Below, piece by piece: positions 46,950 to 62,259 of a stretch of 64,000 nucleotides of DNA (position 1 is its first letter; every line of letters starts with the position of its first letter). The position numbers and the translations under genes were made by a program. Origin of the DNA: Peptococcaceae bacterium BICA1-8 (GTDB taxonomy: Bacteria; Bacillota; Peptococcia; Peptococcales; BICA1-8); NCBI GenBank assembly GCA_000802045.1, contig JUEF01000034.1, forward strand, positions 839 through 64,838, given 5' to 3'. The notes below the pieces were generated by a model. The model worked only from the letters and a program-made list of their open reading frames with translations. It was not told the origin of the DNA and did no database searches.

Positions 46950-46991
46950 ATCTTCTACCTCATCCTAATGTTTTATTGCATTTTCTTGCTT

Positions 46992-47891
46992 TTATCCTTT
47001 TTTTCCTGCTTTTTTGGAAAATAATGTTGTCAAAGGTGAAAAATCCTGTAATGTTAAATTAACCGCAGAAAATATGTCACCATATTTATCCAATCTATTT
47101 TTAACGTTAAAAATAGTAAAGTTATGTATATCTACACCTTTTTCAACCTCAGACCAGGTTAATGGGATAGAAACAAGAGCATTAGAGACAGGCCGAACAC
47201 TATATACTGAGGCCATTGTTTTACCGTAACCATTTTGCAGATAATCTAAATATACCTTTCCCTTCCTTTTAGATTTATTCAGTTCTGTTGTAACTAACCC
47301 CGGGAAGGTACATACCAAATTATTACACAAATTCTTTAAGGTTTCCCGAACTATAGGAAAGGAATAGCATGCTTGAATTGGGAGATAAATATGTAGTCCT
47401 TCCGAACCTGATGTTTTGGGAAAGCATTTTATATTCACACTATCTAGAAGCTCTTTAATTAATAATGCAACTTCTAAGGTGTGTGCAAATTGTGCTGGCG
47501 GTTCTGGATCTAAATCAAAAACAATTATATCAGGTTTATCTAAATTAGGAAGTTTACTAAGCCAGTGATGTAATTCAATACATCCCAAATTTATTAACCA
47601 AATCAAGGTATCAACATCATTACATAAAATCATCTTCCGGTCATCCAAGGTTATTGTTTTAACCCATTCCGGGGTATGAGTGGGGCTTTGTTTCTGGTAG
47701 AAAGCTTTGCCCCTTATGCCATCAGGATATCGCTTCATTACAAAGGGCCGATTCTGCAAATGTGGTAAAATATATTCACTTAACTCCAGATAGTATTTTA
47801 TTAAATCCCCTTTAGAAATCTTTTCTTCAGGCCAAAAAACCTTTTCTAGATTACTTAATTTTATTTCATGATTAGCAATTTTTACTAACAT
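46992..47891 (-). CDS. stand-alone LigD-type polymerase/primase domain (NHEJ PolDom, AEP superfamily)
   Basis: 299 aa. LSNLEKVFWPEEKISKGDLIKYY..., VMKRYPDGI and IVFDLDP...KTSGSEGLHIYLPI match the LigD polymerase domain pattern. No ligase or nuclease domain is fused to it. Confidence 0.85.
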   Translation of the reverse strand: MLVKIANHEIKLSNLEKVFWPEEKISKGDLIKYYLELSEYILPHLQNRPFVMKRYPDGIRGKAFYQKQSPTHTPEWVKTITLDDRKMILCNDVDTLIWLINLGCIELHHWLSKLPNLDKPDIIVFDLDPEPPAQFAHTLEVALLIKELLDSVNIKCFPKTSGSEGLHIYLPIQACYSFPIVRETLKNLCNNLVCTFPGLVTTELNKSKRKGKVYLDYLQNGYGKTMASVYSVRPVSNALVSIPLTWSEVEKGVDIHNFTIFNVKNRLDKYGDIFSAVNLTLQDFSPLTTLFSKKAGKKG

Positions 47892-47964
47892 AAATATAAA
47901 TTCCCTCTAAAAATACATTCTAACCTCATTATTGCCAAATGTATAGAAAAAAAAAGAAACCCTA

Positions 47965-48132
47965 TTAAGGTTCCTTGTATTCTTCACCACATTCCATACA
48001 TAAAAATATATTGCTTGCATCTACCAAGTCACATTCCTTACAATCTTCTTTCCGCTCTACTACACCATAACTAACGTATTTTTCCGCAAAATTTTGGAGT
48101 TCTTTTTTACATTTACTACACCGGTAAACCAT
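47965..48132 (-). CDS. 55-aa zinc-ribbon-like protein with three CxxC pairs (not in the ORF track, under 60 aa)
   Basis: My translation: MVYRCSKCKKELQNFAEKYVSYGVVERKEDCKECDLVDASNIFLCMECGEEYKEP. GGAGG lies 7 nt upstream of the ATG at 48132. The ORF ends in a double stop (TAA TAG), then a short hairpin plus a T-run. Confidence 0.55.
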   Translation of the reverse strand: MVYRCSKCKKELQNFAEKYVSYGVVERKEDCKECDLVDASNIFLCMECGEEYKEP

Positions 48133-48174
48133 AAAAAAACCTCCTCTTCTTTTTCAAATATCGACTATTCATAG

Positions 48175-48207
48175 ATTAATAATAAAGTTATCTTATTTAT
48201 TATTAAT
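48175..48207. promoter_or_regulatory. perfect 12-bp inverted repeat upstream of the zinc-ribbon ORF (possible operator)
   Basis: ATTAATAATAAA, a 9-nt spacer, then TTTATTATTAAT. Lies 43-75 nt upstream of the ATG at 48132. It is AT-only, so partly expected by composition. Confidence 0.3.
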
Positions 48208-48236
48208 CTTTATGTTTTAATATTATTATATTATCT

Positions 48237-48263
48237 AAAAAAACACAAACAATGTTTGTGTTT
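48237..48263 (-). terminator. rho-independent terminator abutting the stop of the MBL-fold hydrolase gene
   Basis: 10-bp stem AAACACAAAC / GTTTGTGTTT with a 3-nt loop, followed on the minus strand by TTTTAGA. Confidence 0.65.
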
Positions 48264-48947
48264 TTAAAGTATTATTTCTTCTTCAATTTCTAATACCTCA
48301 CAGTTTATTCCTGCCTCGGATAATTTTACTCTAAATACATCAGCGTCCTGTTTTATAAGATCAAATGTATTGTAATGCATTGGAACTACTATTTTAGATT
48401 TTAGCATTTTTGCTGCCTCAATGGCATCATCAATTCCCATAACAAAATTATCACCTATCGGAAGTAAAGCAATATCAAGCTTGTTTAATCTACCAATTAA
48501 TTCCATGTCACCAAAGAGGCCTGTATCGCCTGCATGATAAACATTTTTATTTTCTATTGTTACAACAAATCCACAAGGGCTACCAGTGTATTGTATATTA
48601 CCATCTTCAATAACTGCTGAACCGTGCCATGCTGGAGTAAGTTTAACTTTTCCAAAGTCAAATTGATAAGAACCTCCTATATGCATAGGGTGAACTTGGG
48701 CACCTTTAAATTGGCAATACATCGCCAATTCAAAAGGGGCAATAATTAAGGCCCCCGTGCGTTTTGCGATTGATAATGCATCACCTAAGTGGTCACTGTG
48801 ACCATGAGTAAGTAGTATTGCATCTACATCTATTTGCTCTTTTTTGACTTTAGCCAGTGGGTTTCCAGTTAGAAATGGATCAAAAATGACCTTGCTTCCC
48901 TCACCTTCAATGGAAAAGCAGGCATGACCATGGAATCTAACCTTCAT
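48264..48947 (-). CDS. metallo-beta-lactamase-fold hydrolase (UPF0173 / YtkL-like)
   Basis: 227 aa with LTHGHSDHLGD and downstream His/Asp ligands, resembling UPF0173 family proteins. Confidence 0.85.
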   Translation of the reverse strand: MKVRFHGHACFSIEGEGSKVIFDPFLTGNPLAKVKKEQIDVDAILLTHGHSDHLGDALSIAKRTGALIIAPFELAMYCQFKGAQVHPMHIGGSYQFDFGKVKLTPAWHGSAVIEDGNIQYTGSPCGFVVTIENKNVYHAGDTGLFGDMELIGRLNKLDIALLPIGDNFVMGIDDAIEAAKMLKSKIVVPMHYNTFDLIKQDADVFRVKLSEAGINCEVLEIEEEIIL

Positions 48948-48993
48948 AAATAATCCCTCCTATTTTAGATCTTAACGACCTAATTTTCTATCT

Positions 48994-49022
48994 ATTATAG
49001 AATAAGGCGGTCTTGTAGTCAA
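48994..49022 (-). promoter_or_regulatory. sigma-A promoter for the MBL-fold hydrolase gene
   Basis: Minus strand reads TTGACT (49022-49017), a 17-nt spacer, then TATAAT (48999-48994). This is a near-consensus match. Confidence 0.6.
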
Positions 49023-49060
49023 ATATCTCCAATTATGTATGTGGCATTTATGTATAGCAA

Positions 49061-49264
49061 CTATTCGTTAGATTCTGCTTGATTTTCCCCTTCGATAGTA
49101 GCTTCTAAAATTTCCTTCCATTCCTCAAAAACCCTTTGTTTTCTGTTCTTTTTTTCTTTTCTAATAAACTCCTCTAAAAAATATAACTGATTAGTTTCCA
49201 ACTGCTTGATTTGCTCTTTAATTGCCTCAAGCTGTTCATCCTCATATATCAGCTTAATTAACAC
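49061..49264 (-). CDS. small acidic coiled-coil protein, hypothetical (67 aa)
   Basis: GTG start 9 nt after AAGGAG. E/K/Q-rich helical sequence with no recognisable family. Confidence 0.4.
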   Translation of the reverse strand: MLIKLIYEDEQLEAIKEQIKQLETNQLYFLEEFIRKEKKNRKQRVFEEWKEILEATIEGENQAESNE

Positions 49265-49331
49265 AGCTTTCCGCTCCTTTTTGACTGATTTTTATCTCTA
49301 AAAATACTACCCTTTATAATTCTACATAATA

Positions 49332-49380: not shown

Positions 49381-50910
49381 CTAATCCCAAATCTTCCTGT
49401 CTAAAGACCTATACTGAATAGCCTCAGCTATGTGTTGGATATCAATTTGTTCTTTTCCCTCCAAATCTGCAATTGTTCGGGCAACTTTTATAATCCGATC
49501 ATGTGCTCGTGCAGTAAGTCCCAATTTATCAAATGCTTGTTTTAAAAGGTTTTTGCTTTCATTCTTTAAAGAACAGAACTTTCTAACGTCCTGTGTCTTC
49601 ATCTCAGAATTGGTAAAAATACTTGTATTATTAAATCTTTCCAGTTGAATTTGCCTAGCTCTTTCTACCCTTAGGCGAATTGTAGCACTTTCTTCCTCTA
49701 AGACTTCTGACTGTAATTCCTGAAATTCGAGTCTTGGAATCTCTAGGTGCAAATCTATTCTATCTAAAAGGGGTCCCGAGACCTTATTTCGATATTTCTG
49801 AGCCATATGTGGAGTGCATGTGCATTCTTTAATTGTATCACCATAATACCCACATGGACAGGGGTTCATTGCTGAAACCAAAAGAAATTTAGCAGGATAT
49901 GTTAGTTGGGCTGCAACACGCGAAACAGTAACCTTACCTTCTTCTAAAGGCTGTCGTAATGCTTCTAGGATATCCTTAGGGAACTCAGGAAATTCATCCA
50001 TAAATAAAACCCCATGATAACTAAGGCTTATCTCACCTGGAGTAGGTATCCTTCCACCTCCAATAATGCTTGCCTGGGAAGCACTGTGATGAGGTGCTCG
50101 GAAAGGTCGCTGATTAATTACCGGCTGTTGAGAGGGCAATAAACCAGAAATACTGTATATTTTTGTTATATCTAGGCATTCCTTAAAGGTTAATGTTGGC
50201 ATAATACCAGGAAGACATCGAGCCAGTAGAGTTTTTCCGGAACCTGGTGAACCTACCATTAGAACATTGTGATTACCAGCAGCTGAAATTTCTAAAGCTC
50301 TCTTGGCCTCTGCCTGACCTTTAACATCTCTAAAATCATAATCTAGAAAGGTCTCCTGCTGAAATAAATCCTCTAACTTTGGTGCTTGAACAGGCTTAGT
50401 TTGCTTAGGGTAAATAAGAAAATCAACTACATCCTTTAAATACTCAAAGCAATAGGTGGGGGTACCCCCTAATGCACCTTCGAGACCATTTTCCATAGGT
50501 ACAATTAGGTTATATTCACTTTTAGCCAGATGCAAAGAAATAGGTAAAACTCCATTTACCTTGCGCAGCCTGCCGTCTAAACCTAATTCTCCTACAGCCA
50601 TAATGTTATTTAATTTTTCAATTTCTAACTGATTTGTCGCAGCTAAAATAGCAAGTGCAATTGGTAAATCAAAGCTGGGGCCTTCTTTTTTGAGATGAGC
50701 CGGAGCCAAATTTACGACAATCCTCCTAGGTGGAAAGTCAAAACCTGAATTCCTTATAGCGGTTCTAACCCTTTCCTTGCTTTCTTTAACTGCGGTATCC
50801 GGAAGTCCTACTATATCCCAAGCCGGAAGCCCGCCTGCTGCATCAACTTCAATTTCAATCTCAAAAACTGATAAGCCCATAAGAGTAGAGCTTTTTACAT
50901 TTGCAAGCAT
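49381..50910 (-). CDS. comM: Mg-chelatase-like AAA+ ATPase YifB/ComM
   Basis: 509 aa with an N-terminal Lon-like domain (GLPAWDIVGLPDTAVKESKERV), Walker A GSPGSGKT, Walker B VLFMDEF and a C-terminal Mg-chelatase domain. Confidence 0.94.
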   Translation of the reverse strand: MLANVKSSTLMGLSVFEIEIEVDAAGGLPAWDIVGLPDTAVKESKERVRTAIRNSGFDFPPRRIVVNLAPAHLKKEGPSFDLPIALAILAATNQLEIEKLNNIMAVGELGLDGRLRKVNGVLPISLHLAKSEYNLIVPMENGLEGALGGTPTYCFEYLKDVVDFLIYPKQTKPVQAPKLEDLFQQETFLDYDFRDVKGQAEAKRALEISAAGNHNVLMVGSPGSGKTLLARCLPGIMPTLTFKECLDITKIYSISGLLPSQQPVINQRPFRAPHHSASQASIIGGGRIPTPGEISLSYHGVLFMDEFPEFPKDILEALRQPLEEGKVTVSRVAAQLTYPAKFLLVSAMNPCPCGYYGDTIKECTCTPHMAQKYRNKVSGPLLDRIDLHLEIPRLEFQELQSEVLEEESATIRLRVERARQIQLERFNNTSIFTNSEMKTQDVRKFCSLKNESKNLLKQAFDKLGLTARAHDRIIKVARTIADLEGKEQIDIQHIAEAIQYRSLDRKIWD

Positions 50911-50985
50911 GATATCCTCCGATAAAAAAATTGTAATATAATATATTACAATTTTACAGATATCGGCAAATATCCTTCTTTTTTA
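50822..50985. repeat. direct repeat copy A: comM codons 1-30, the ATG and the promoter block (attL-like)
   Basis: 50822-50910 matches 61890-61978 at 87/89 nt (80 consecutive identities). 50960-50985 is identical to 62027-62052. The centre (50911-50959) has diverged. Confidence 0.9.
50919..50985 (-). promoter_or_regulatory. sigma-D (sigma-28)-like promoter plus long imperfect palindrome in the comM leader
   Basis: Minus strand reads TAAA (50985-50982), a 14-nt spacer, then GCCGATAT (50967-50960). Then comes the palindrome CCGATA...ATTGTAATAT-ATT-ATATTACAAT-TTTTTTT-ATCGG, running into the SD GGAGG. Confidence 0.4.
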
Positions 50986-51189
50986 AGAATATTAATAAAT
51001 TACGTGATAATATACAGGTAATGCATACGCGTTAAATAGATTTTATTAGAACTGAGTCTATAATAAACATTATTCCAAAGTCACTAAATTTCCATGCAAG
51101 ATAAGAACTGGTCTGCCCCCCAATAAGTATACAAAAGTCTCTAATAATAATCAAAGAGTTATCACTAGACGTATTTGGGATAAAATAAG

Positions 51190-51368
51190 AAAGAAAATAT
51201 GAGCGAAGTTTTGCAGATGGCATGGAACCGCATGGACTTCGCTATCGTAGGTTAAATTTTGGAAGATAAAATATCCAAAAATAGGCGACAATGACGGCAT
51301 GTCAGAATATGAAAAAGATCGCAAATCATCTAGCTAAGGTAAGCTAGGAAGGTTTGCGACCTTTTTTT
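51190..51368 (+). ncRNA. candidate structured small RNA at the island's left end
   Basis: Weak promoter TTGGGA-17 nt-TATGAG (51175-51203). Hairpins AGCGAAGT/ACTTCGCT (51202-51209 / 51236-51243) and TTTTGGA/TCCAAAA (51257-51263 / 51274-51280), then a strong terminator. No convincing ORF (only 18-codon peptides). Confidence 0.25.
51319..51368 (+). terminator. rho-independent terminator (works in both directions)
   Basis: Nested stems TCGCAAA/TTTGCGA and CTAGCT/AGCTAG followed by TTTTTTT (51362-51368). The minus-strand version is followed by TTTTTC. Confidence 0.6.
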
Positions 51369-51410
51369 GTTACTATATTTTCGAATAATACTAAAAATAG
51401 TAACTTTTTT
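51369..51410 (+). terminator. second, back-to-back terminator hairpin
   Basis: GTTACTAT...ATAGTAAC stem (51369-51376 / 51397-51404) followed by TTTTTT. Confidence 0.5.
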
Positions 51411-51602
51411 ATTAGCTCCAAAATAAGCGTTTAAAATAAACGGGGTTTTTTCTACAATCTGAAGTATTATTTTCCCTTATTACATTTTCTAAAATTCAAT
51501 TCATTGGTATTTCCAAGACCAGACCCTCTCTTAATCCCGTATGTTATCCCTACCATTTACAATAAACTGGAAACTCCCTGGATTTTGAGAGAATTTTATA
51601 TA

Positions 51603-52967
51603 TCAAGCACTTATTTTTTCTGAATATTGAGGTAAATAATTCTTTGCAATACCATATTTCATCATTAGGTAATAAGATAGTCCAGCGGGAATTAAGCTAA
51701 TGTACCAGGAAAGTTGAACCTCAATTGCACCAAAAATAGCACCAATAACTATGGCAATAATGCCTGCCCAGTTGACCGATTTATATGGTCCATTTACATC
51801 ATACAAAACATTAAGGTCTAGCTGTTGTTTTCTAAAGAAATAATAGTCGACAACCAACACTGCAAAAATTGGGCCTAGAAAAACAGAGTATATTTGAATA
51901 AATAAGAAAAACCCCCCTGCTGTTGCAATTTTCCATGGGAATGTTAAAAATGCAAGTAAGCCAGTGATAACCGATCCTTTTTTCCAATCTATCCCAAATA
52001 AATCCATCATAACATACGTTGGAGGGACAACGTTTAACATAATATTAGTTGTAATTTGTGCGAGTACAACGAAAAAGAGGGCAGCGACAAGAACAAGCTT
52101 ATTAGGAAGTAGTTCAACAAATAAGTGAATAGGATCCCATTGACCAGTGACCCCCGCTGCAAGTAGCCCAATTACAGCCATAAATAAGGTAGTAGGAAGA
52201 GTTCCTACTATGTGAAGGATAAACATTAGTTTAGTGGTGCTGGATTTATTAAATTCCCTTGTATAGTCACTGATATTTAACATTAATGTAGTATAAATTC
52301 CGATAAATGCTGTAGTACCTCCCCAGAAAGCCAATCCCCAGGTTCCTGGTATGTTGATTATCTTTTCCTGTACTTGTGATCCATAGGCTGCATAAATTAT
52401 ATAAAGCATCCAGCATAACGAAATCATAATTATAACAGCACCAATATTTTCTAACCATTTGATTCCTTTAAACCCAAGTATTGACAGTAGGATCTGGAAT
52501 AGTTGGAATGTAACAAACCAGAACATAGGGCTATCAAAACTAAACAATTCGACAGAAATAGCATTTAGTGCCAATCCGCCAACCCAGGTCTGCACACCAT
52601 ACCAAAATATCGCTGGAACAGCCCTTATTACTCCGGGTAATTTTGAACCTTGAATTCCAAAGGCCGACCTTGCCTGTATGATAAAAGGGATACCATATTT
52701 ATGACCCGCTTGACCATTTAAGGTAAAACAGAAAGATACAATAGTCATTGAAACAATCATACATACAAAGGCTTGGAGGAGATTAAGCTTTCCTACGGGG
52801 GGGACTAAACTCGCACCCAGCATAAAGTATCCAATAAAAACACAACCACCAATCCAGGCAAACAAATATGATAAATTACCCATTATCCTATTTTCTTGGG
52901 GAAGTAAACTTTCCTCACCAAAACCCTTTTCTTCTACAACCGCTTGTACAGTTAACTTTTCTTCCAT
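51603..52967 (-). CDS. NCS1 family nucleobase/hydantoin/allantoin:cation symporter
   Basis: 454 aa, ~12 TM segments. The N-terminal region (NLSYLFAWIGGCVFIGYFMLGA) and overall pattern match NCS1 (Mhp1/PucI-like) permeases. Confidence 0.9.
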   Translation of the reverse strand: MEEKLTVQAVVEEKGFGEESLLPQENRIMGNLSYLFAWIGGCVFIGYFMLGASLVPPVGKLNLLQAFVCMIVSMTIVSFCFTLNGQAGHKYGIPFIIQARSAFGIQGSKLPGVIRAVPAIFWYGVQTWVGGLALNAISVELFSFDSPMFWFVTFQLFQILLSILGFKGIKWLENIGAVIIMISLCWMLYIIYAAYGSQVQEKIINIPGTWGLAFWGGTTAFIGIYTTLMLNISDYTREFNKSSTTKLMFILHIVGTLPTTLFMAVIGLLAAGVTGQWDPIHLFVELLPNKLVLVAALFFVVLAQITTNIMLNVVPPTYVMMDLFGIDWKKGSVITGLLAFLTFPWKIATAGGFFLFIQIYSVFLGPIFAVLVVDYYFFRKQQLDLNVLYDVNGPYKSVNWAGIIAIVIGAIFGAIEVQLSWYISLIPAGLSYYLMMKYGIAKNYLPQYSEKISA

Positions 52968-53035
52968 TTATTTTCCTCCTTTTTCTTGTTTTTCCTAGCT
53001 TTTTACAGGCCGGGAAAATAATTATTTGTCTTATT

Positions 53036-54430
53036 TTATAATCCGGAATAGGCAGTTCCATAAGGTTCACCCTTAATAAAAGACCCCTGTCCTAATTCTC
53101 CTAAAAATATTCCTTTTTCAGCCACAAGTTTACCCCTTAAAAAGACCTTATCAGCACGCCCTATTTGTTCCATGCCTTCATAAGAAGAGAAGTCAACTCC
53201 CTGTAAGCTGTTTTCAACTGCAATTCTCCCTTTCCAAGCTGGGTCAAACAATACAAAGTCAGCATCCGCACCAACTCCAATATGCCCCTTTCTTGGGAAT
53301 ATCCCATTAAATTTTGCAGGAGCTGTTGCAAAAACATCAACTAGCCTTTGACGGGTAATTCTTCCTTTTTCTACGCCATATGTCCAGAGAATGGCTAGGC
53401 GGTTCTCAACTCCTGGCGCTCCATTGGGTATTTTCGTAAAATCATAGTACCCTATATGCTTTTGCTCTTTCCAGTTAAATCCACAATGGTCAGATCCAAC
53501 AACTTGCAACCAACCCTTTTGTACAGCCTGCCACATAGCTTCAAGATGTTCAGGAGTTCGTAATGCAGGGGAGCATACATATTTAGCCCCTTCAAAATCT
53601 GGCTTTGCAAGGTTATCAACTGTCAAAACCATATAATGAGGACATGTTTCACCATAGATGGGAAGGCCCTTGGCAAATGCATCACGAATTGCCTCCATTG
53701 CCCCTATGCAGCTTACATGAACCACAAATAAAGGTGCTCCGGCCGCTTCAGCTAAGGTAATGGCACGGGATGTACATTCTGTTTCCACAATAGGAGGCCT
53801 GGAAACTGCATGATATTTAGGCTCCAATTGACCAGCTTCTACACATTGTTTTTGTAAAACATCAATTATATCACCATTTTCTGCATGAACCATCATGGTA
53901 ACTCCTGCTTTTTTTGCTGCCTGAAGACCTCTAAAAATTACACCATCATCACACATAAAAGGTGTGCCTTTATACGCCATGAACATCTTTAAAGTTGGTA
54001 TGCCAATCTCAGGAAGCTTAGGTATCTCCTCAAAAAGTTCATTAGTCACATCCATTACCATCCCGTGGAAACTGTAGTCGACCATAGCCTTACCTTTAGC
54101 CTGTTCCTCAATATGCTTCGCAACTGATTCTCTTAGGCTCATCCCTTTAGGCTGAGGAACAAAATCTACTATTGTGGTTGTACCACCTACAATTGCAGCA
54201 TTGGTAGTTTCAAATCCCCTTGTATATGTACCTCCGAAAGGCAGTGCAAAATGGGTATGTTGATCTATTCCACCAGGAAGTACATACATCCCCGCGGCAT
54301 CCACAATCTCCCTGGCCCTCCCGTCCAATCCTTCTCCAATTGCAATAATTTTTTCTCCTTCAACCAGAATATCAGCTTTATACTCATCCAAAGAAGTCAC
54401 AATAATTCCATTTTTAATCAATAAACTCAT
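53036..54430 (-). CDS. D-hydantoinase / dihydropyrimidinase (cyclic amidohydrolase)
   Basis: 464 aa. It aligns in my reading end to end with Bacillus-type D-hydantoinase. Matching motifs: GGIDQHTHF, KMFMAYK (carbamylated Lys), VHAENGD, GSDHC, FTKIPNGAPGVE and DADFVLFDP. Confidence 0.92.
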   Translation of the reverse strand: MSLLIKNGIIVTSLDEYKADILVEGEKIIAIGEGLDGRAREIVDAAGMYVLPGGIDQHTHFALPFGGTYTRGFETTNAAIVGGTTTIVDFVPQPKGMSLRESVAKHIEEQAKGKAMVDYSFHGMVMDVTNELFEEIPKLPEIGIPTLKMFMAYKGTPFMCDDGVIFRGLQAAKKAGVTMMVHAENGDIIDVLQKQCVEAGQLEPKYHAVSRPPIVETECTSRAITLAEAAGAPLFVVHVSCIGAMEAIRDAFAKGLPIYGETCPHYMVLTVDNLAKPDFEGAKYVCSPALRTPEHLEAMWQAVQKGWLQVVGSDHCGFNWKEQKHIGYYDFTKIPNGAPGVENRLAILWTYGVEKGRITRQRLVDVFATAPAKFNGIFPRKGHIGVGADADFVLFDPAWKGRIAVENSLQGVDFSSYEGMEQIGRADKVFLRGKLVAEKGIFLGELGQGSFIKGEPYGTAYSGL

Positions 54431-54477
54431 GCTTTTCCTCCTTTAAATTTATTAAAATAAAAAAAATTTCACCTCCT

Positions 54478-55728
54478 CTAAGTTTTTTTGGTTAAGCTGG
54501 AAGTAAGTTTATATACCACATTAAGCAATAGTTCACAACCAGCCTTAATATCTTCATAACTTGTTAATTCTTCAGGGACATGACTCCTGCCCCCAATACT
54601 GGGCACGAATATCATTCCGACATTGGTAATACCGCCAAATAAACAGGCATCATGCCCAGCACCGCTGTTCATTTTTTTATAAGGAAGTCCTTTTTCTATT
54701 GCAGTTTCTTCAATTAAATTTACTAACTCGTTTGATAAAATAATAGGATTCGATTCGCCTAATAATTTCATAGATGTACTTAAGTTGAATTTCTTTGAGA
54801 TTTCATTAAGCTTTTTCTCAACCTCATTGAGTATAATTCTTATCCCTTCCGGGTTTGTATCTCTAACATCAAGAGTAAAATTTATTTTTCCGGGAATGAC
54901 ATTAGGGACATTTGGATGACAAATAATTTTACCAACAGTAGCAACTGTTGACGGATAAGCCGTTCTAGTTTTACTATTAATGGTAGTAATAACCTCTGAT
55001 GCTCCTACCAGAGCATCATTCCTCATAACCATAGGGGTAGCACCTGCATGATTTGGTACTCCTCTAATTTCAATTTCAAACCATTTAATACCAGCAATTG
55101 CTTCAACTATTCCTATTGGTTTTTTTTCACTTTCTAACACAACACTTTGTTCGATATGAAGCTCAATCATAGCCATAATATCCCCGGTTTTTATTAAGTA
55201 TTTCTGCGAACTATCAGGATCAAAACCAACTTCTTTTGCAACTTCATACATGGATAAGCCCATACTGTTTTTGATACTCTTAATTTCATCAATCCCGTAT
55301 TTTCCTGTCAATACTTTACTTCCTGCCATAGTTGATCCAAAATTTGACCCCTCTTCTTCTACAAAAATAATCAGTTCTATAGGAATATCATTTTTTATAT
55401 TGTTTTCTTTGAAAACTCTAATTACCTCAAGGGATCCTACTACTCCCAAAACACCGTCAAAAATACCTCCGTGAAGCACTGTATCAATATGGGAACCAAT
55501 TAGAACTGCAGGTGCATCCTTCATACTGCCTTCCAATCGAGCACGAATATTTCCTACCCCGTCAATGCTAGTAGTAAGTCCTAGTCTGTTTATCTCCTCA
55601 ATGAGGTAATTTCTTGCCTTTGAATCTTCTGGGCTGTATGAAAATCTAGTACAACCTTGTCCTGGTGTTGCATTGAATTCAGCAATTTTTTCAATATCTC
55701 TTTTTACTCGGGATATGTTAATCTCCAT
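54478..55728 (-). CDS. M20-family N-carbamoyl-amino-acid / beta-ureidopropionate / allantoate amidohydrolase
   Basis: 416 aa with GSHIDTV, FVEEEGSNFG and HAGATPM motifs, typical of the AmaB/AllC/hydantoin-utilisation-protein-C subgroup of peptidase M20. Confidence 0.88.
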   Translation of the reverse strand: MEINISRVKRDIEKIAEFNATPGQGCTRFSYSPEDSKARNYLIEEINRLGLTTSIDGVGNIRARLEGSMKDAPAVLIGSHIDTVLHGGIFDGVLGVVGSLEVIRVFKENNIKNDIPIELIIFVEEEGSNFGSTMAGSKVLTGKYGIDEIKSIKNSMGLSMYEVAKEVGFDPDSSQKYLIKTGDIMAMIELHIEQSVVLESEKKPIGIVEAIAGIKWFEIEIRGVPNHAGATPMVMRNDALVGASEVITTINSKTRTAYPSTVATVGKIICHPNVPNVIPGKINFTLDVRDTNPEGIRIILNEVEKKLNEISKKFNLSTSMKLLGESNPIILSNELVNLIEETAIEKGLPYKKMNSGAGHDACLFGGITNVGMIFVPSIGGRSHVPEELTSYEDIKAGCELLLNVVYKLTSSLTKKT

Positions 55729-55945
55729 TAATAATTCACCCTTTTTCTTATTTTTAAAAAGTATTATCCTTCATTTATTTATTGATCTTATACCTTTTAG
55801 TAAGGATGCATTTGCGTTTTTATATTGCTCTAATTCATGGGACTAGCCGCCACTTTACAGATAATCTTTCTTTCTATTCTCATTAATTTACGTCTTTCGA
55901 GATTTTGATTATTTATTTTTACCTCCTTTTCCTTAGAAAGACATG

Positions 55946-56260
55946 TTACTCCTTCCAAACTGGTTTAGATTCTATAATTAAAATTGACGCAGTATCAGTT
56001 GTTTCTGGCTTATACAATATTCCTTTAGGAATAAATACACCTTCATTTTCTTCCAGTTGTATTACATCATTCTCCATAATAATAACTAGGTTACCTCTAA
56101 GAAGTAGGACAAATCTATCAGACTGTTCACTGGCAAACCAACAGGAGTCACTGTTAATGCGGCAAAAGCTTATTAAACAACCATTAAATTCAGAAAATTC
56201 AAATAGGTAAGTCTTGTCTAAGTCCCTTGATATATTATTAAAATTCATTTTCCTTAACAA
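55946..56260 (-). CDS. small single-domain cupin protein
   Basis: 104 aa (TTG start 10 nt after AGGAGGAGG). Beta-barrel pattern LLLRGNLVIIMENDVIQLEENEGVFIPKGILYKPE. First gene behind the sigma-54 promoter. Confidence 0.65.
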   Translation of the reverse strand: MLRKMNFNNISRDLDKTYLFEFSEFNGCLISFCRINSDSCWFASEQSDRFVLLLRGNLVIIMENDVIQLEENEGVFIPKGILYKPETTDTASILIIESKPVWKE

Positions 56261-56303
56261 TACTTCCTATCCTCCTCCTATAGAATTCTACAATATATTA
56301 ACT

Positions 56304-56319
56304 TGCAAAAATCATACCT
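56304..56319 (-). promoter_or_regulatory. sigma-54 (-24/-12) promoter of the cupin-carbamoylase-hydantoinase-permease operon
   Basis: Minus strand reads AGGTAT, a 5-nt spacer, then TTGCA, so GG-N10-GC is preserved. Lies 44 nt upstream of the cupin start. Confidence 0.55.
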
Positions 56320-56372
56320 GCTAATAATGTAGGCAAAATATTGATATACTTCTATTTAGCCATTTATTTTAG

Positions 56373-56405
56373 TGCATTTCTGCACACAATTTTGCATTAT
56401 TGCAC
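56373..56405. promoter_or_regulatory. candidate enhancer (UAS): two TGCATTNNTGCAC boxes
   Basis: TGCATTTCTGCAC (56373-56385) and TGCATTATTGCAC (56393-56405), 20 nt apart start to start. They lie 54-86 nt upstream of the -24 element. Confidence 0.35.
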
Positions 56406-56473
56406 TAATCTTTATATTGTAGTTTTCCTCCATTCCGTAGCCATTTTAAATGGATTAAATCATAACAAGAGAA

Positions 56474-56496
56474 AAGTTCCCTTTATTGGGGAACTT
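56474..56496 (-). terminator. terminator of the sigma-54 activator gene
   Basis: 8-bp stem AAGTTCCC / GGGAACTT followed on the minus strand by TTCTCTTGTT. Confidence 0.55.
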
Positions 56497-56523
56497 CTAA
56501 AAAACTTATCTCTTATACTACAA

Positions 56524-58605
56524 TTAATATACATCAGGTTTAGTGCTAAAGTATTTATTTGCTTTCCTAAGTATTGTCGTCCTATGAACACCTAATACTT
56601 CCGCCACTTTATTTATATTTGAATACTTTTGATATGCCATCATTATTAGGTCCTTTTCCAACCTTTCAACAGCTAAGTCCAAAGGTAAAATATTATTTAT
56701 CTGTAAAATATCCCTGGCAGTTTCCACTTCCTCCTGAAGTTCTCCTGGCAGCTGGTTAAGGTTTATGGTTTCACCTTCTATTGTTACTACCAGTCTCTCT
56801 ATCATATTTTCCAACTGTCTTACATTCCCCGGCCAAGAATATTGGATTAACCTTTCAATTGCTTCAGAACTAAAATGTTTTCTTAACAAATATTTTTCAC
56901 CAAACTTTGACAAATAGTAATTTACCAGGATTGGTATCTCATCCTTCCGCTCTCTTAGTGGAGGTACAATAATCGGAATAACATTTAAGCGATAATATAA
57001 ATCTTCTCTAAACTCGCCCTTATTTACCATTTTTATTAAATTTCTGTGAGTAGCTGCAATAATTCTTATATCCACTTCAATTGGTTTTATACCCCCAACA
57101 GGATAAAACTTTTTTTCCTGTATTAATTGCAATACCTTTACCTGAAGTGCTAAGGGAAGATCCCCTATCTCATCCAAAAACAACGTCCCTTTATTAGCCT
57201 GCAATACTAAACCAACTTTCCCTTCTTTTGAAGCCCCAGTAAATGCTCCCCTAACATATCCAAAAAGTTCAGACTCCAGTAAGTTTTCTGGAATAGCTCC
57301 ACAATTTATTTTTATAAAAGAATTATCTTTTCGTGCTGAAGAATCTTGAATAAACCTGGCAACCACTTCTTTTCCAGAACCGGATTCGCCGGTTATTAAT
57401 ACTGTAGTATCTACCATTGCCACCCTAGATGCCAGGTCTACAACCTTTGCCATCTTTGAACTTCTGGCAATTATTCTTTCCTCCGCCTTTTCCCTCCGCA
57501 ATTCACCTAATTCTTTTTGGTATTTTTTTAGAAGTTCTTCCGTTTCTTCCAGTTGAAGTTTCAACCTGCTTAATTCGGTAATATCATGAGAGAAGTTTAT
57601 TATCCTGTATAAGTTCCCATCATTATCAAAAATAGGTACACCGGTTACAAAAAGCCGTCTTCCGCCTTTCGTATCCTGAATTAGTGTCTGTCTTTTTTTT
57701 GTCTGCAAAACCAGGTTTGTCACTGATTTTGATAAAACACTAGTTTTTTCTAAGTCTTTTACATTTCTGCCAATGAACTCCTCCATCTTTATTCCAAACA
57801 TCTTTTCCAGGGATGAGCTGGCACGCAGAGCAATTCCATTTTGATCAATTACCGTAATTAAATCGTACGAATTATCCATAATAAACTCTAATTCTTGATT
57901 TAATGCTATTTCCTCGTCCAGTTTTTTTGATACTCTTTCCAAGTCGTTAATATTCTGGAATACTCCAATTGCACCCATTACTTTTCCGTCTTTTACTATT
58001 GAGGTTCTATTCGTAACAATAATATTACCATTTATTAGCTGTTTTTCTCCTGTTACACTCTCACCGGTTCTGCTTACTACTAACAATTGGGAGGTCGGAA
58101 TTATATCATATACTAACTTACCAACAGCATCACTTTTCTTAATTCCGCTTATTTTTGCAGATGCCTCATTAAAGATTGTTATATAACCCTCATCATCTAT
58201 TGCGATTATACCGTTATGAATTGAATCTAAAATAATATTTTGTTCAGTCAGTACGTGACCTAAAAGGCCGATACTGTTTCTGTTTATACCGCTAAGATAA
58301 CCGTCGTTTTCAATAATGATATATCTCTTCTCATTTCCTGTCTCAACTAGGCTTTTGCCTGTTACAAAAGTAAAATCTTTGTGAATAAAAGGTAAAATGA
58401 GACTGTCAAATTTTATATCTGAAGATGCTATCGCAGCTAACATATCTTCTAAAACCAGAACTCCTTCTACCTTTTTAGCATTATTACTTACTACGGGACA
58501 GTAATTAAGTTCACTTTTCGAGAACAGTGAGATAGCATCCATAATAGTATTATTCAATTTAATTAGCCCTTGAAAAGGCTTTGCAATTTCCCTATACAAT
58601 ATCAA
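56524..58605 (-). CDS. sigma-54-dependent transcriptional activator (CBS + PAS sensor, AAA+, Fis-type HTH)
   Basis: 693 aa. Has an N-terminal CBS-like segment and PAS repeats. AAA+ motifs are GESGSGKE and VRGAFTGA (GAFTGA loop), plus LFLDEIGDL. C-terminal HTH is INKVAEVLGVHRTTILRKANKY. TTG start 6 nt after GAGGTG. Confidence 0.93.
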   Translation of the reverse strand: MILYREIAKPFQGLIKLNNTIMDAISLFSKSELNYCPVVSNNAKKVEGVLVLEDMLAAIASSDIKFDSLILPFIHKDFTFVTGKSLVETGNEKRYIIIENDGYLSGINRNSIGLLGHVLTEQNIILDSIHNGIIAIDDEGYITIFNEASAKISGIKKSDAVGKLVYDIIPTSQLLVVSRTGESVTGEKQLINGNIIVTNRTSIVKDGKVMGAIGVFQNINDLERVSKKLDEEIALNQELEFIMDNSYDLITVIDQNGIALRASSSLEKMFGIKMEEFIGRNVKDLEKTSVLSKSVTNLVLQTKKRQTLIQDTKGGRRLFVTGVPIFDNDGNLYRIINFSHDITELSRLKLQLEETEELLKKYQKELGELRREKAEERIIARSSKMAKVVDLASRVAMVDTTVLITGESGSGKEVVARFIQDSSARKDNSFIKINCGAIPENLLESELFGYVRGAFTGASKEGKVGLVLQANKGTLFLDEIGDLPLALQVKVLQLIQEKKFYPVGGIKPIEVDIRIIAATHRNLIKMVNKGEFREDLYYRLNVIPIIVPPLRERKDEIPILVNYYLSKFGEKYLLRKHFSSEAIERLIQYSWPGNVRQLENMIERLVVTIEGETINLNQLPGELQEEVETARDILQINNILPLDLAVERLEKDLIMMAYQKYSNINKVAEVLGVHRTTILRKANKYFSTKPDVY

Positions 58606-58722
58606 TGGAATTCACCTCTTAGAATTTTAAATATAAAAGGAATTCTCTCTGTTTAATAAAAACCCTTTTATCTTAATATTTTTTTTTGAAAATTCTAATT
58701 ATTTAAACTAGTTATTTCTCGT

Positions 58723-58738
58723 TGGCATTATTCTTGCA
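58723..58738 (+). promoter_or_regulatory. sigma-54 (-24/-12) promoter of the C_GCAxxG_C_C gene
   Basis: TGGCAT-TATTC-TTGCA, a near-perfect match to TGGCAC-N5-TTGCW. Lies 40 nt upstream of the ATG at 58778 and is divergent from the activator gene. Confidence 0.72.
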
Positions 58739-58777
58739 ACATAATAGAACATATTAAGATATTTGGAGGAATTAGTA

Positions 58778-59287
58778 ATGGACATTGACTCCCTTCAACA
58801 AAATACAAAAGAACTCGCTGTGAAAAACTTTAAAGAGAGAATGAGCTGCTCAGAAGCTGTACTGTCAGCAGTAATTTCAGCCGGTTTAATAAGTTATCCA
58901 CGGGACATAGTTGCTCTGGCAACAGGATTTGGAGGCGGTATTGGTCTAGCGGGCTTTAACTGTGGTGCTCTTTCTGGTGCCGTCATGGCAGTTAGTGGAG
59001 TTCACGGCCGAAGAAACCCTATCACAGGGACGCCGGATGAAAGAACCCAACTTACTTATGGCAAAATATACCGCATATTTAATTCCCTCGTACAGGATTT
59101 CCAAGAAGAGCTTGGCTCTGTTGACTGTATGGAGTTGTGTAAAAACTATGATTTCAATACAAAGGAAAGATCAGAGTATTGTGCAGGCATTGTTGAATAT
59201 GCCACAACACTAGCAGTTTCCTACATAGCTCTTGGAGAATTCTACAGTACAAAATCCTATGGAAAAAATATGGCGGGTTTAAAATGA
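58778..59287 (+). CDS. C_GCAxxG_C_C family (putative redox-active) protein
   Basis: 169 aa counted from the ATG at 58778 (GGAGG 8 nt upstream). Contains MSCSEAVLSA and FNCGALSGAVMA, the family's C-GAxxG signature, plus C-terminal Cys residues. Confidence 0.85.
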   Translation: MDIDSLQQNTKELAVKNFKERMSCSEAVLSAVISAGLISYPRDIVALATGFGGGIGLAGFNCGALSGAVMAVSGVHGRRNPITGTPDERTQLTYGKIYRIFNSLVQDFQEELGSVDCMELCKNYDFNTKERSEYCAGIVEYATTLAVSYIALGEFYSTKSYGKNMAGLK

Positions 59288-59411
59288 TATTAGCATAATC
59301 AAAATTTTAAACTTCGGGGTTCCGGGGCAGAGCCTCCATAAATATCACTAGCTCCATTGGCATTCTTTCTACCCCATTCTTTCTTGCTTTCTTTGGTTTA
59401 AGCAATAATTA

Positions 59412-59439
59412 TTGATATATGTTCAAAACAGTATATAAT
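59412..59439 (+). promoter_or_regulatory. sigma-A-like promoter upstream of the glutamate-synthase-like gene
   Basis: TTGATA, a 16-nt spacer, then TATAAT. Lies ~95 nt upstream of the ATG at 59536. Confidence 0.45.
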
Positions 59440-59535
59440 AAAGTTGAATGGGGCATATGACCATAACTATAAGAGATACTGGTCTTTAATAAAAATGGGG
59501 ATATCTGTTTTTAATTATTATGCGGGGGTGATATT

Positions 59536-61089
59536 ATGTCTTATAGTCCATCATTAGGGAGTTCCATAACCAATACTAGAATGAGAACTCCGGAACATAT
59601 ATCTGATTTTTCAGGTATGTGTGCAGTATGTACAGCTAATTGTACAGGCCTTTGTGAAATAGGCCTATCTGCTATCCGTGGATCAGAAGCAATTTATCCT
59701 TATGCAATAGATATAAACCAATTTGCTTCTGAGAAAGAGTACCCATTGGATTTTTCTCATTTTAACATCAATGGGAGGGTATTTGGCGCATTAGGATGCT
59801 CTGAAGATGCTAATATGACAACTTTCCCTAAAGTAAGTATCAATACATCCTTTGGTATAAACAATAAAATCAATCTGAAAGCACCTATCCTTCTGCCGGC
59901 TATGGCTAAATTAAACTGGAAGGATTACTATGCTGGAGCAGCTTTAGCAGGTGTATTAGTGGTAATTGGTGAAGATGTAGTAGTAAAAGATAAGGGTTTA
60001 GTTTTAGAAAATGGTAAAGTTAGTAACTCACCTCTTATTGCAGAAATGTTAGCTTCATTTAAAGAGTATTATAATGGGTACGGGGATATTATTATTCAGG
60101 CTAATTATGATGATGAAAACCTGGGAGTATTAGATTATGCTATCACTAAATTGGAAGTAAAATCGGTAGAGCTTAAATTTGGGCAAGCGGCTAAAGGAAT
60201 TCAGGGGATGGGAAGAGTAAAAAATATTGAAGACGCACTAAAGTTTCAAGAAATGGGTTATTTAATTTATCCTGATCCCTCTGACCCAGTTGTAGCTGAA
60301 AACTACAAAAATGGTATAGGTCAAATATTTGAAAAAATAGGTAAATTACCAATGTGGAATGAGGACATATTGATTAAACGAGTCGCTGAGCTACGAGAGT
60401 TAGGGGCTGAACATATCTGCTTCAAAACTGGGCCTTTTGATCCGAAAGATCTGGTTAAGATTCTTAAAATTGCGTCAAAAGCTGGTGTGGATTTAGTTAC
60501 ATTTGATGGTGCTGGAGGAGGGTCTGGAAATAGTCCAACTAAAATGATGAATGAATGGGGTATTCCTACAGTTTATATGGAAAGTATGCTGTACGATATA
60601 TTAAAAAAGTTTAAAAAGAAAAATTATTCTATGCCTCAAGTTGCAATAGCTGGTGGGTTTGCTATGGAAGATCAAGTATTTAAGGGATTAGCATTGGGTG
60701 CTCCATATGTAAATCTCATAGGAATAGGTAGGGCTGCTATGGCAGCAGCATTAGTTGGCAAGCAAATAGGAGAATTAATAAATAAAGGAACAGTACCTAA
60801 AGAGTACCAGAGATTCGGCTCTACTTTAGAAGAAATATTTGCTGATATTAGGGAGCTTAAAGGTTTATATGGTAGTGATGCAAAAGATATTTCCCCTGGG
60901 GCAATAGGGGTATATTCATTTATAAATAGGATTTCTGCAGGACTACAACAATTCATGGCTCTCAACCGTAAGTTCGCTCTAAAGTATATTGATAGGAGTG
61001 ATATATTCCCTTTAACAGAAATAGCAGCTAAGATTACAGGGCTAGAGACATATACCGATATAGTAAACAGAGAATTAAAGAATCCCTAA
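59536..61089 (+). CDS. FMN-binding glutamate-synthase-domain-2-like oxidoreductase with an N-terminal Cys cluster
   Basis: 517 aa. The TIM-barrel GltB-FMN-type core contains VELKFGQAAKG, TFDGAGGGSGNSP and GGFAMEDQVFKGLALGA. An N-terminal CAVCTANCTGLCEIG motif (C-x2-C-x3-C-x3-C) is a presumptive Fe-S site. Confidence 0.88.
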   Translation: MSYSPSLGSSITNTRMRTPEHISDFSGMCAVCTANCTGLCEIGLSAIRGSEAIYPYAIDINQFASEKEYPLDFSHFNINGRVFGALGCSEDANMTTFPKVSINTSFGINNKINLKAPILLPAMAKLNWKDYYAGAALAGVLVVIGEDVVVKDKGLVLENGKVSNSPLIAEMLASFKEYYNGYGDIIIQANYDDENLGVLDYAITKLEVKSVELKFGQAAKGIQGMGRVKNIEDALKFQEMGYLIYPDPSDPVVAENYKNGIGQIFEKIGKLPMWNEDILIKRVAELRELGAEHICFKTGPFDPKDLVKILKIASKAGVDLVTFDGAGGGSGNSPTKMMNEWGIPTVYMESMLYDILKKFKKKNYSMPQVAIAGGFAMEDQVFKGLALGAPYVNLIGIGRAAMAAALVGKQIGELINKGTVPKEYQRFGSTLEEIFADIRELKGLYGSDAKDISPGAIGVYSFINRISAGLQQFMALNRKFALKYIDRSDIFPLTEIAAKITGLETYTDIVNRELKNP

Positions 61090-61099
61090 TTTAATCTTA

Positions 61100-61143
61100 C
61101 AAGGGAAGCCGATATCTACTAGATTAGATATCGGCTTCCCTTG
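61100..61143. terminator. 19-bp perfect palindrome 11 nt after the stop of the glutamate-synthase-like gene
   Basis: CAAGGGAAGCCGATATCTA - CTAGAT - TAGATATCGGCTTCCCTTG. No U-tract on either strand. Both arms contain GCCGATATC. Confidence 0.55.
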
Positions 61144-61481
61144 ATAAACCCCTGTAGCAATTTAAAGGTTTCGTTCTAAAGTAAGTAAAAAAAATCTAGC
61201 GTATAAAAAACAAGAGGCATCTAGATACATACTACATCTTGAATACCCCTTATCGTTGTTTTGGTGCGGTAGAGAAGACTTGCTTCAAAAAGATTAGACC
61301 GTTTTAGCCACCTTAATGTTGGTTAAGTTTGCCTATTTTTTTGCCAGCATCTACTAAATTTTTGATAGCATTTACATATGTTTTTTGGTATAGCAAATAA
61401 GGACAGAAGAAATGTTTCAGGTCAAATTATTGTATTTTGTACTAAAAAGACAAAGTTATTGAACTCTATTTTGCTCCTTAA

Positions 61482-61889
61482 TTATATATTATTCTTATTT
61501 ATGAAAGCTGAAGTTATTAGCCTCCTTATAACTTCAGCTTTACTGAATTTTAAAGAGGACTTGTATTTATTTAGGTCATTTGCTATTTGCTCTAGCTGCG
61601 CTAACTGTTTTTTAGAAAACTTAACATTCTTTCTTTTATCACCTACATTATCTTCAATATTCAAATTTTCTATTTGCTTTACTACCTTGTTATCAAAAAC
61701 TAAATCAGTTATCTTACGAATTATTTCTGCTTCACTAGAACCTTGCTTTTGTTTTAGGTGTTGTAAATATTCATTTTGGACTTCTGAAATAACAAAACCA
61801 TATTCTTTTAAACAACCATCCTGCTTCTTATTCTGTATATAGAAGTAATGCACATAATCTGGTTGGCGAACTTTCCTACCTTCTCCCAT
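61482..61889 (-). CDS. tandem ribbon-helix-helix (RHH/CopG-like) protein at the island's right border
   Basis: 135 aa with two RHH-like units. Unit 1: YGFVISEVQNEYLQHLKQKQGSSEAEIIRKITDLV. Unit 2: KNVKFSKKQLAQLEQIANDLN...FSKAEVIRRLITSA. The ATG lies exactly at the repeat junction. The antisense 154-aa ORF looks like junk. Confidence 0.6.
   Translation of the reverse strand: MGEGRKVRQPDYVHYFYIQNKKQDGCLKEYGFVISEVQNEYLQHLKQKQGSSEAEIIRKITDLVFDNKVVKQIENLNIEDNVGDKRKNVKFSKKQLAQLEQIANDLNKYKSSLKFSKAEVIRRLITSAFINKNNI
61836..61886. repeat. repeat X: 5' coding end of the RHH gene, duplicated at 62070-62119
   Basis: 46/51 identity with 62070-62119. The inner 33 nt (61854-61886 vs 62087-62119) differ at one position. 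Confidence 0.85.
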
Positions 61890-61978
61890 GCCGGCAACCC
61901 GCCTGCTGCATCAACTTCAATTTCAATCTCAAAAACTGATAAGCCCATAAGAGTAGAGCTTTTTACATTTGCAAGCAT
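61890..61978 (-). pseudogene. comM: orphan comM 5' fragment (codons 1-30)
   Basis: Encodes MLANVKSSTLMGLSVFEIEIEVDAAGGLPAW, identical to ComM residues 1-30. It then diverges (EKVGKFANQIMCITSIYRIRSRMVV, stop). Confidence 0.85.
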
Positions 61979-62052
61979 GTTTTCCTCCGATATTTGTAAA
62001 ATGTAATACTACTTATAATTTTACAAATATCGGCAAATATCCTTCTTTTTTA
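61890..62052. repeat. direct repeat copy B: displaced comM 5' end plus promoter (attR-like)
   Basis: See copy A. Contains TAAA-N14-GCCGATAT and a perfect 16-bp palindrome CCGATATTTGTAAAAT / ATTTTACAAATATCGG (61987-62002 / 62018-62033), followed by the SD GGAGG and the ATG at 61978. Confidence 0.9.
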
Positions 62053-62069
62053 GCAGATTTATTAATGTT

Positions 62070-62119
62070 TATATAAAAGTATAAACATAATCTGGTTGGC
62101 GAATTTTCCTACCTTCTCC
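62070..62119 (-). pseudogene. remnant of a second RHH-gene 5' end (older junction scar)
   Basis: Translates as GEGRKIRQPDYVYTFI then stop, compared with MGEGRKVRQPDYVHYFYIQ in the intact gene. It has no start codon and is truncated by the copy-B promoter block. Confidence 0.6.
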
Positions 62120-62225
62120 ACTCTTACTCCACTTATTGCATCAATTTAGAATTAAATATATTGAGATGGACCTATCTGGTTAGTCCTTATAAAACCTTAA
62201 AATGAAGTATTATAAGTATTCATTT

Positions 62226-62259
62226 AAAAAAGGTCATTGCTTAGAAAAGCAATGACCTT
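62226..62259 (-). terminator. rho-independent terminator
   Basis: Perfect 13-bp stem AAGGTCATTGCTT / AAGCAATGACCTT with a 4-nt loop, followed on the minus strand by TTTTAAATG. Lies ~300 nt downstream of the GntR gene. Confidence 0.6.

Follow-up and report, generated by a model that had tools for sequence, protein, structure and literature searches.

A probable stub of an earlier ribbon-helix-helix gene at the island-bearing comM locus of Peptococcaceae bacterium BICA1-8

What preceded the island that now occupies the 5' end of comM in Peptococcaceae bacterium BICA1-8? In the 64,000-nt stretch of contig JUEF01000034.1 analysed here (the window), the comM promoter and first 31 codons, ~190 bp in all, are present twice in direct orientation, 11,068 nt apart. 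The island lies between these copies, A and B, and its gene for a predicted tandem ribbon-helix-helix (RHH) protein abuts copy B; the start of this gene recurs, as a scar, on the far side of copy B. A preliminary description of the window had read the scar as the trace of an earlier element of the same family, which was deleted before the present island arrived. We compared the scar with related loci and conclude, with a rough probability of 0.6, that positions 62046-62132 are the dead 5' stub of an earlier RHH-family gene that predates the island, and that the comM slot has been used at least twice. Coordinates are collected in Table 1.

The stub and its island-free counterpart

Positions 61852-61886 and 62085-62119 are identical at 34 of 35 sites, a pairing found in none of 100 dinucleotide shuffles of the window, and with one 1-nt gap the alignment extends to 61825-61886 against 62059-62119. 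Three earlier observations were confirmed: 61836-61886 recurs at 62070-62119 with 46/51 identities (4 mismatches and one gap); the outer copy, in the annotated frame of the island gene, reads GEGRKIRQPDYVYTFI-stop and has no start codon; and the minus-strand order is scar, promoter B, comM 5' copy B, RHH gene, island, promoter A and comM. The 51 nt had also been said to encode the N-terminus of the RHH protein. Here the repeat stood and the coding role probably did not, since most of the 51 nt are likely to be untranslated leader, the homologues starting at a later GTG.

The stub is longer than was noted earlier. By blastn and by MAFFT alignment with intact homologues it runs from 62134/62132 to ~62046, about 87 nt (the blastn match to contig L004 covers 62134-62046 at 85.6%), and it consists of 14 nt that we call X (GTGGAGTAAGAGTG), a 32-nt leader and ~13 degenerate codons joined directly to the comM promoter. 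Over its distal 62 nt the stub scores 45/69 against the island gene, 50/65 against other alleles and 52/64 against a degenerate allele on contig L092, with which it has the variant CATACTTTTATATAAAC in common. The distal part is thus least like the island's gene, which identifies the stub as a separate allele of the same family and not as a copy of that gene, in agreement with the preliminary description. In a MAFFT alignment the stub is fused to the promoter at the same point, without indels, in the window and in contigs L088 and L001; a single truncation in their common ancestor accounts for this. The last ~20 nt of the stub fall within repeat copy B, so the promoter copy carried by the island probably came from a stub-bearing comM locus.

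The relative age of stub and island is set by L088, which carries a comM (P0007) 93% identical to that of the window. It shares with the window, in this order, the end of the GntR gene, the terminator, the spacer, X and the stub, after which come a B-type promoter and an uninterrupted comM; the island and an intact RHH gene are both absent, and its version of X is GTGGGGTAAGAGTG. Over 766 columns L088 is 95% identical to window 62648-61884. The match breaks off precisely at TGGGA (61888-61884), whereupon L088 runs into comM, matching window 50996-48570 at 90%. Because the stub stands at an island-free site and the homology ends exactly at the island junction, the stub is older than the island, as had been proposed. 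The same alignment fixes the island boundaries given in Table 1 and identifies copy B as the chromosomal 5' end and copy A as island-borne. An unoccupied target with a nucleotide-precise boundary, as used to recognize accretion arrays, is therefore present in a relative.

Differences between the copies support this assignment. Copies A and B are 86-87% identical overall, with promoters that differ by ~14% and coding parts whose first 75 nt are identical. The sole coding differences are three synonymous changes in codons 27-29 (Leu-Pro-Ala; 61893-61902 versus 50825-50834), which indicates that both copies derive from working comM alleles and not from a drifting duplicate. These junction-proximal codons read TTG CCG GCA in copy B, TTG CCG GCC in L088 and CTT CCG GCT in copy A. 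It is unlikely that L088 is an assembly artefact, since a collapsed assembly of an island-bearing genome would put A-type codons beside comM and L088 has B-type codons. In 77 other lineages, whose comM is at most 59% identical, the locus had neither a duplicated comM 5' end nor an RHH homologue; the closest of these genes is too distant to be used as an empty site.

Several points weigh against this account. L088, a metagenome contig of 3 kb, belongs to a different strain, its comM locus being ~90% identical at the DNA level, and the homologous loci are all on short contigs from subsurface and other metagenome assemblies. In L001 the left flank of X bears no relation to the one found in the window and L088, so that either an extra rearrangement occurred or X, stub, promoter and comM 5' end travelled as a module. 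Finally, none of the units seen encodes an integrase or transposase, nor do the 10 kb upstream of the stub, and mobility is thus deduced only from structure.

Table 1. Positions of the features discussed, with contig names where a feature lies outside the window.
Feature	Position	Strand	Remarks
comM (yifB-type Mg-chelatase-like ATPase, 509 aa)	49381-50910	minus	intact gene
Repeat copy A: island-borne promoter A and comM 5' end	50806-50996	minus	now serves intact comM
Present island, 11,068 bp	50816-61883		from empty-site comparison with L088
Island tandem RHH gene and leader	61482-61885	minus	leader 61854-61885; likely GTG start 61853; stop 61482-61484
47-nt block copies	window 61839-61885; L001 888-934, 4313-4359; L004 1186-1232		
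Repeat copy B	61874-62066	minus	includes chromosomal comM promoter and 5' end
comM 5' copy B, codons 1-31	61884-61978	minus	ends in TGGGA (61884-61888), the left junction of the island
Promoter and 5' untranslated region B of comM, chromosomal copy	61979-62066	minus	1 difference from L088 in promoter stretch
Stub: decayed start (GTT for GTG) and ~13 codons of old RHH gene	62046-62086	minus	blastn, MAFFT, allele comparison
Stub: leader copy R1*, 32 nt	62087-62118	minus	1 difference from island copy 61854-61885
Stub: X (GTGGAGTAAGAGTG)	62119-62132	minus	sharp left edge of conserved block
Spacer preX, terminator to stub	62133-62229	minus	~97 nt
Intrinsic terminator of upstream GntR/aldehyde-ferredoxin-oxidoreductase cluster	62230-62259	minus	13-bp stem, then T run; conserved in L088; chromosomal left limit of region
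Joint 1: fresh comM 5' end and leader	window 61885; L001/L002/L003/L005		
Joint 2: decayed comM 5' end and leader	L001:888; L007		
Joint 3: 14-nt X and leader	window scar; L001:4066; L004:1172		X identical in all three

The upstream side of the stub

Across loci, copies of the leader fall into three kinds of joint according to the sequence that precedes them (Table 1), and the stub belongs to the kind in which the leader is preceded by X. On L004, X and leader lead straight into an intact homologue with no comM DNA nearby, which marks X as the family's own upstream sequence. X does not resemble comM, and the DNA to its left is unrelated in the three places: the terminator region of the GntR operon in the window, a P-loop/ABC-type gene fragment in L001 and a 178-aa open reading frame (ORF) in L004. 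The outer side of the stub therefore differs from what had been described as an old RHH copy next to its att site, since its outer 14 nt are X and not an older comM 5' end. Of the scheme proposed earlier, the relative age of the scar and the separateness of the gene held good, and an old attachment junction in comM was left unproven. To judge from its sequence, the outer side of the stub is probably an unrecombined X/leader configuration, attP-like or native, and not a recognizable comM junction.

Beyond X lies the spacer preX, which may be a heavily decayed older comM 5' end, an origin that is not established. When the 45 nt upstream of the leader were compared with comM in anchored register, fresh joints scored 42-43/45, the decayed joint at L001:888 scored 26/45 (p=2e-4) and the window scar scored 23/45 at offset -3 (p=0.004), and there was no comM similarity at L001:4066 or in L004. 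The window preX also scored 18/31 against comM codons ~10-25 at the same offset (p ~0.006). Anchored global alignment gave z=5.8 for L001:888 (0/2000 shuffles), z=1.6-2.3 for the window, z=2.2-3.0 for the outer flank of L088 (best 8/2000 shuffles) and z<0 for controls. Unconstrained alignments of preX to the promoter and comM 5' end were not significant under four scoring schemes; for the sequence beyond the family-specific X, anchored tests gave p ~0.004-0.03, and the similarity to comM is weak overall (p ~0.004-0.1). The faint similarity of 62120-62150 to comM in the preliminary description is thus slightly above chance in the right register, and a comM origin is not established by it. A comM derivation of the left flanks of X in L001 and L004 was rejected (p=0.42-0.87, z<0), the L001 flank being the P-loop/ABC-type gene fragment. 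As a separate observation, a sigma-70-like promoter match (ATGACC-17-TATAAT, 10/12) at 62237-62209 on the minus strand overlaps the tail of the GntR-operon terminator and points toward the stub and comM; it is conserved in L088.

These tests bear directly on an explanation that we consider unlikely, namely that the scar is an old attL-type junction at which preX and X together are the decayed original comM 5' end. An earlier element at the same codon would then have been deleted to its left 50-90 nt and its right-end promoter and comM 5' end. The register-anchored scores of the window, the L088 values of up to z=3.0, the occurrence of TTGATGCA and AAATTGA in the expected order, and the existence of a genuine decayed comM 5'/RHH junction in L001 all speak for it. 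Against this, the sequence that abuts the leader is X, which is not comM-like and recurs unchanged in L004 and at L001:4066 next to upstream DNA with no relation to comM. Neither unconstrained local nor global tests of preX were significant, and only ~97 nt separate the terminator from X, whereas ~170 nt or more (a promoter and 93 nt of comM) would be needed unless there had been further deletions.

The second alternative draws on L001, in which two units follow one another. On this contig an aldehyde-oxidoreductase paralogue and its terminator are followed by a decayed comM 5' end that abuts the leader and gene RHH_a (P0005), and then by genes for DUF5714 and DUF2284 proteins, a 71-aa gene and the P-loop gene fragment. 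Next come X, the stub, the promoter, a fresh comM 5' end, the leader with RHH_b (P0002) and an ornithine cyclodeaminase gene. By analogy, the X/leader joint of the window could be the unrecombined attP-type joint of two elements in a tandem array, with the DNA to the left of X as cargo of the older one. This cargo would include GntR, two AORs and a TRAP transporter. The RHH head of the older element, with a decayed comM 5' end like that of L001, would be located >10 kb upstream, and the block from X through the stub and promoter to the comM 5' end would travel as a module. Such an array would explain why the same block, 95% identical, follows the cargo of the RHH_a unit with its decayed left end, why X is invariant next to three unrelated flanks and why the genes upstream of the stub look like accessory metabolic genes. 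We nevertheless regard it as quite improbable. In the window's own strain (L091) no RHH gene, leader or comM 5' copy was found in the 10 kb upstream of the stub, which hold TRAP transporter, AOR, ferredoxin and GntR genes, or in the 10 kb upstream of GntR, and the GntR flank is shared with L088 and is hence at least as old as the split between the window and L088.

A 233-nt local tandem duplication or slippage that copied the RHH 5' end after the island arrived, the competing account named in the preliminary description, would fit two direct copies 233 nt apart but is highly implausible, as L088 has the stub alone at an empty site with no inner copy, X is present only in the stub, the distal part of the stub is another allele, and neither between the copies nor beyond them does the sequence repeat with a 233-nt period.

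Reuse of comM and the RHH head gene

Repeated use of comM by the RHH family is real, as seen in the tandem units of L001. Whereas the present island is bounded by the direct target repeats A and B, L001 has one decayed and one fresh comM 5' end, each abutting an RHH leader. Positions 1-650 of L005 are identical to L001 3770-4420 through the flank, stub, promoter, comM 5' end and first ~100 nt of the RHH gene. Inside this gene the two contigs diverge, with different RHH 3' halves and different cargo behind them: ornithine cyclodeaminase in L001, and a FadR-type regulator and an Fe-alcohol dehydrogenase in L005, whose RHH gene is a mosaic pseudogene. A shared flank followed by divergence within the RHH gene indicates that cargo is swapped by recombination inside the head gene. 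Judged on these contigs, RHH-headed cassettes are both stacked and exchanged at the comM locus. Comparable comM 5'/RHH junctions, foreseen in the preliminary description, were found in L001, L005 and L007. A GntR-type right end common to the units was considered and rejected, the identity being only 25%.

The island in the window encodes, besides the RHH gene (annotated as a 135-aa ORF), a glutamate-synthase-like FMN protein, a C_GCAxxG protein, a PrdR-like sigma-54 activator, an N-carbamoyl-amino-acid amidohydrolase (carbamoylase), a D-hydantoinase and an NCS1 permease, and it carries its own comM promoter and first 31 codons. Its G+C content is that of the flanks. The island encodes no integrase, transposase or relaxase. 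Nor was a recombinase gene present on L001, L004, L005 or L092, all of them short contigs, or within 10 kb on the upstream side of the stub. On the other side of the island, a 65-aa ORF, an MBL-fold hydrolase gene and a LigD primase-polymerase domain gene lie between comM and dprA (window 45852-49300). The same order is found in L089 (4000-7351), whose comM is 79% identical, and this neighbourhood is thus core synteny outside the island.

Both comM 5' untranslated regions have long and strong hairpins on the minus strand directly upstream of the ribosome-binding site. That of copy B (61987-62033, z=-5.8) contains a 16-bp perfect palindrome, and that of copy A is at 50911-50974 (z=-5.5). The stems differ in sequence and the pairing is kept; the comM of L089, which has no stub, is without such a hairpin. 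Possible roles for the structure are those of an operator, a leader structure or a component of a recombination site. A possible third and shorter remnant of an RHH start (ATGCATTACCTGTATAT versus GTGCATTACTTCTATAT) lies a short distance upstream of promoter A, at 51010-51026 on the minus strand; for this remnant an anchored test gave p ~0.02-0.03 and an unconstrained test was not significant. It may be a further relic carried by the island itself, at best a weak case.

The annotated ATG of the RHH ORF (61889) is in comM-derived sequence immediately before the junction. Three homologues (P0003, P0004 and P0005) begin with MHYFY at a GTG equivalent to V13 of the window ORF (61853-61851), so the protein probably has 123 aa and starts 36 nt downstream of the annotated ATG. 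A 47-nt block, made up of the 32-nt leader and the first five RHH codons, is identical at 46-47 of 47 positions among four intact genes, of which the next 300 nt are only 72-81% identical. This contrast argues for a conserved DNA element that is not merely coding. The fold of the leader RNA was not significant (z=0.65), and Rfam gave no credible match around the scar.

The 135-aa protein is predicted to be a single-chain tandem RHH protein because its AlphaFold model (mean pLDDT 68; residues 1-25 unstructured) has two consecutive beta-alpha-alpha units (E28-34 H36-49 H53-62 and E85-91 H93-108 H117-133) and because of its best PDB matches. In Foldseek these were chains of the F-plasmid relaxosome (9f0y, 9f0x; probability 1.0, TM 0.52-0.66), followed at lower rank by DndE, AvtR (4hv0), single-chain Arc and VirC2 (2rh3). 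It shares the predicted beta-alpha-alpha arrangement, present twice, with the RHH proteins of the F relaxosome, AvtR and VirC2 type, but identity to them is only 7-13% and no relaxase or oriT was identified nearby. There was no match in Pfam or NCBIfam and only a weak one among PHROGs (phrog_876, 'transcriptional repressor', E=3.6e-5).

The family is tiny and restricted in lineage, with six clusters in 5.8 billion proteins; a profile search of 1.84 billion representatives yielded three matches, of which one was a spurious repeat protein, and the profile had no relatives in viral contigs, plasmids or phages. All members are from metagenome assemblies, including rock-porewater and subsurface samples, or from the BICA1-8 genome bin, which holds a second RHH locus (P0003). 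The exact 27-nt leader pattern occurred in no GTDB species genome and no viral contig, and in a single contig, L005, of the JGI metagenomes. On the more distant metagenome contig L092, a degenerate 71-aa RHH remnant with an internal deletion (191-406) lies beside a DGC-domain gene.

Course of events, related systems and implications

The following course would account for the locus. An RHH-headed gene or cassette would first have stood in front of comM in its native X/leader configuration. A deletion from ~codon 13 to the comM promoter would then have removed the remainder of the gene together with whatever followed it, leaving the stub. Later, a different RHH allele with a hydantoin-utilization cluster (11,068 bp) would have entered comM at TGGGA, in codon 30/31. 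Because the island brought its own promoter and 31 codons, comM stayed intact, and its original 5' end, copy B, was stranded by the old stub. The first occupant would presumably have been a cassette of the same mobile kind.

How the island entered is suggested by the joint itself, whose position is the same to the nucleotide whether the copy is fresh or decayed. Right up to this point copy B is of chromosomal type, and the 13 nt that span it resemble comM at that position (GGA.A..GTAGGA, 10/13). These features favour site-specific recombination, or an inherited attP consisting of comM 5' end and leader, over random illegitimate events. As no unit seen carries a recombinase, either the enzyme acts in trans or homologous recombination occurs through the conserved head and comM anchors. 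In the former case we infer that the invariant 47-nt head block may be the element-side recombination site.

The nearest parallels combine a reused target gene with cargo that accumulates in tandem. The ssrA islands of Dehalococcoides lie in tandem between direct 20-bp repeats of the ssrA 3' end; many units encode the serine integrase DsiB, and many others have no integration module and have been read as cis-mobilizable or as fixed relics (McMurdie et al. 2011, PMC3146451). The comM locus is like them in that one conserved gene is reused as an insertion site, with strain-specific metabolic cargo in tandem and repeats of the target end. It differs in that a protein gene is targeted at its 5' end, instead of an RNA gene at its 3' end, and that ~190 bp, the promoter and 31 codons, are replaced. 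In place of a recombinase, the units seen here have an orphan tandem-RHH head gene with its invariant 47-nt block.

The ICESt1/ICESt3-CIME elements of Streptococcus thermophilus reportedly integrate at the 3' end of fda by means of a tyrosine integrase encoded by the ICE, and are said to show tandem accretion, internal deletion and integrase-less, att-flanked remnants beside a newer element. The logic of accretion followed by deletion is similar at comM, where, however, no integrase is known and the relic keeps its unrecombined X/leader side. For the accretion of the Streptococcus elements see Pavlovic et al. 2004, cited in PMC3146451.

The comM gene family is itself a recurrent target. AbaR/Tn6022-type islands insert in Acinetobacter comM. 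The sr1WO prophages of Wolbachia also target the Mg-chelatase-like comM/yifB gene (PMC9203015). The same gene family thus serves as attachment site in all these cases, but the AbaR and sr1WO elements split and inactivate the gene and encode Tn7-like genes or a serine recombinase, whereas here the gene is kept intact by the promoter and 5' end that the element brings.

Taken alone, the scar is an ordinary pseudogene stub whose value is that of a time-marker. Together with the empty site of L088 and the two-unit array of L001, it shows that in deep-subsurface Firmicutes a precise position in comM has been reused by a small undescribed family of cassettes, which bear catabolic operons and keep their target gene whole by means of a spare promoter and 5' end. 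A tentative reading, more probably wrong than right, is that in this subsurface Peptococcaceae lineage the comM 5' end docks undescribed, integrase-less metabolic cassettes, each with an orphan tandem-RHH head, a 47-nt cis site for recombination (or one akin to a transfer origin) and a decoy comM promoter with 31 codons. On this reading cassettes would be added in succession and exchanged between strains with a recombinase supplied in trans, an integron-like logic applied to a housekeeping gene, and the stub would be one fossil of that process. If no recombinase is found, the turnover of islands would be by homologous recombination around a conserved anchor. If one acting in trans is found, the locus would represent a gene-sparing system of integration, compact and with its attB/attP pair defined, and would illustrate the shuffling of metabolic versatility within slow-growing communities of rock porewater.

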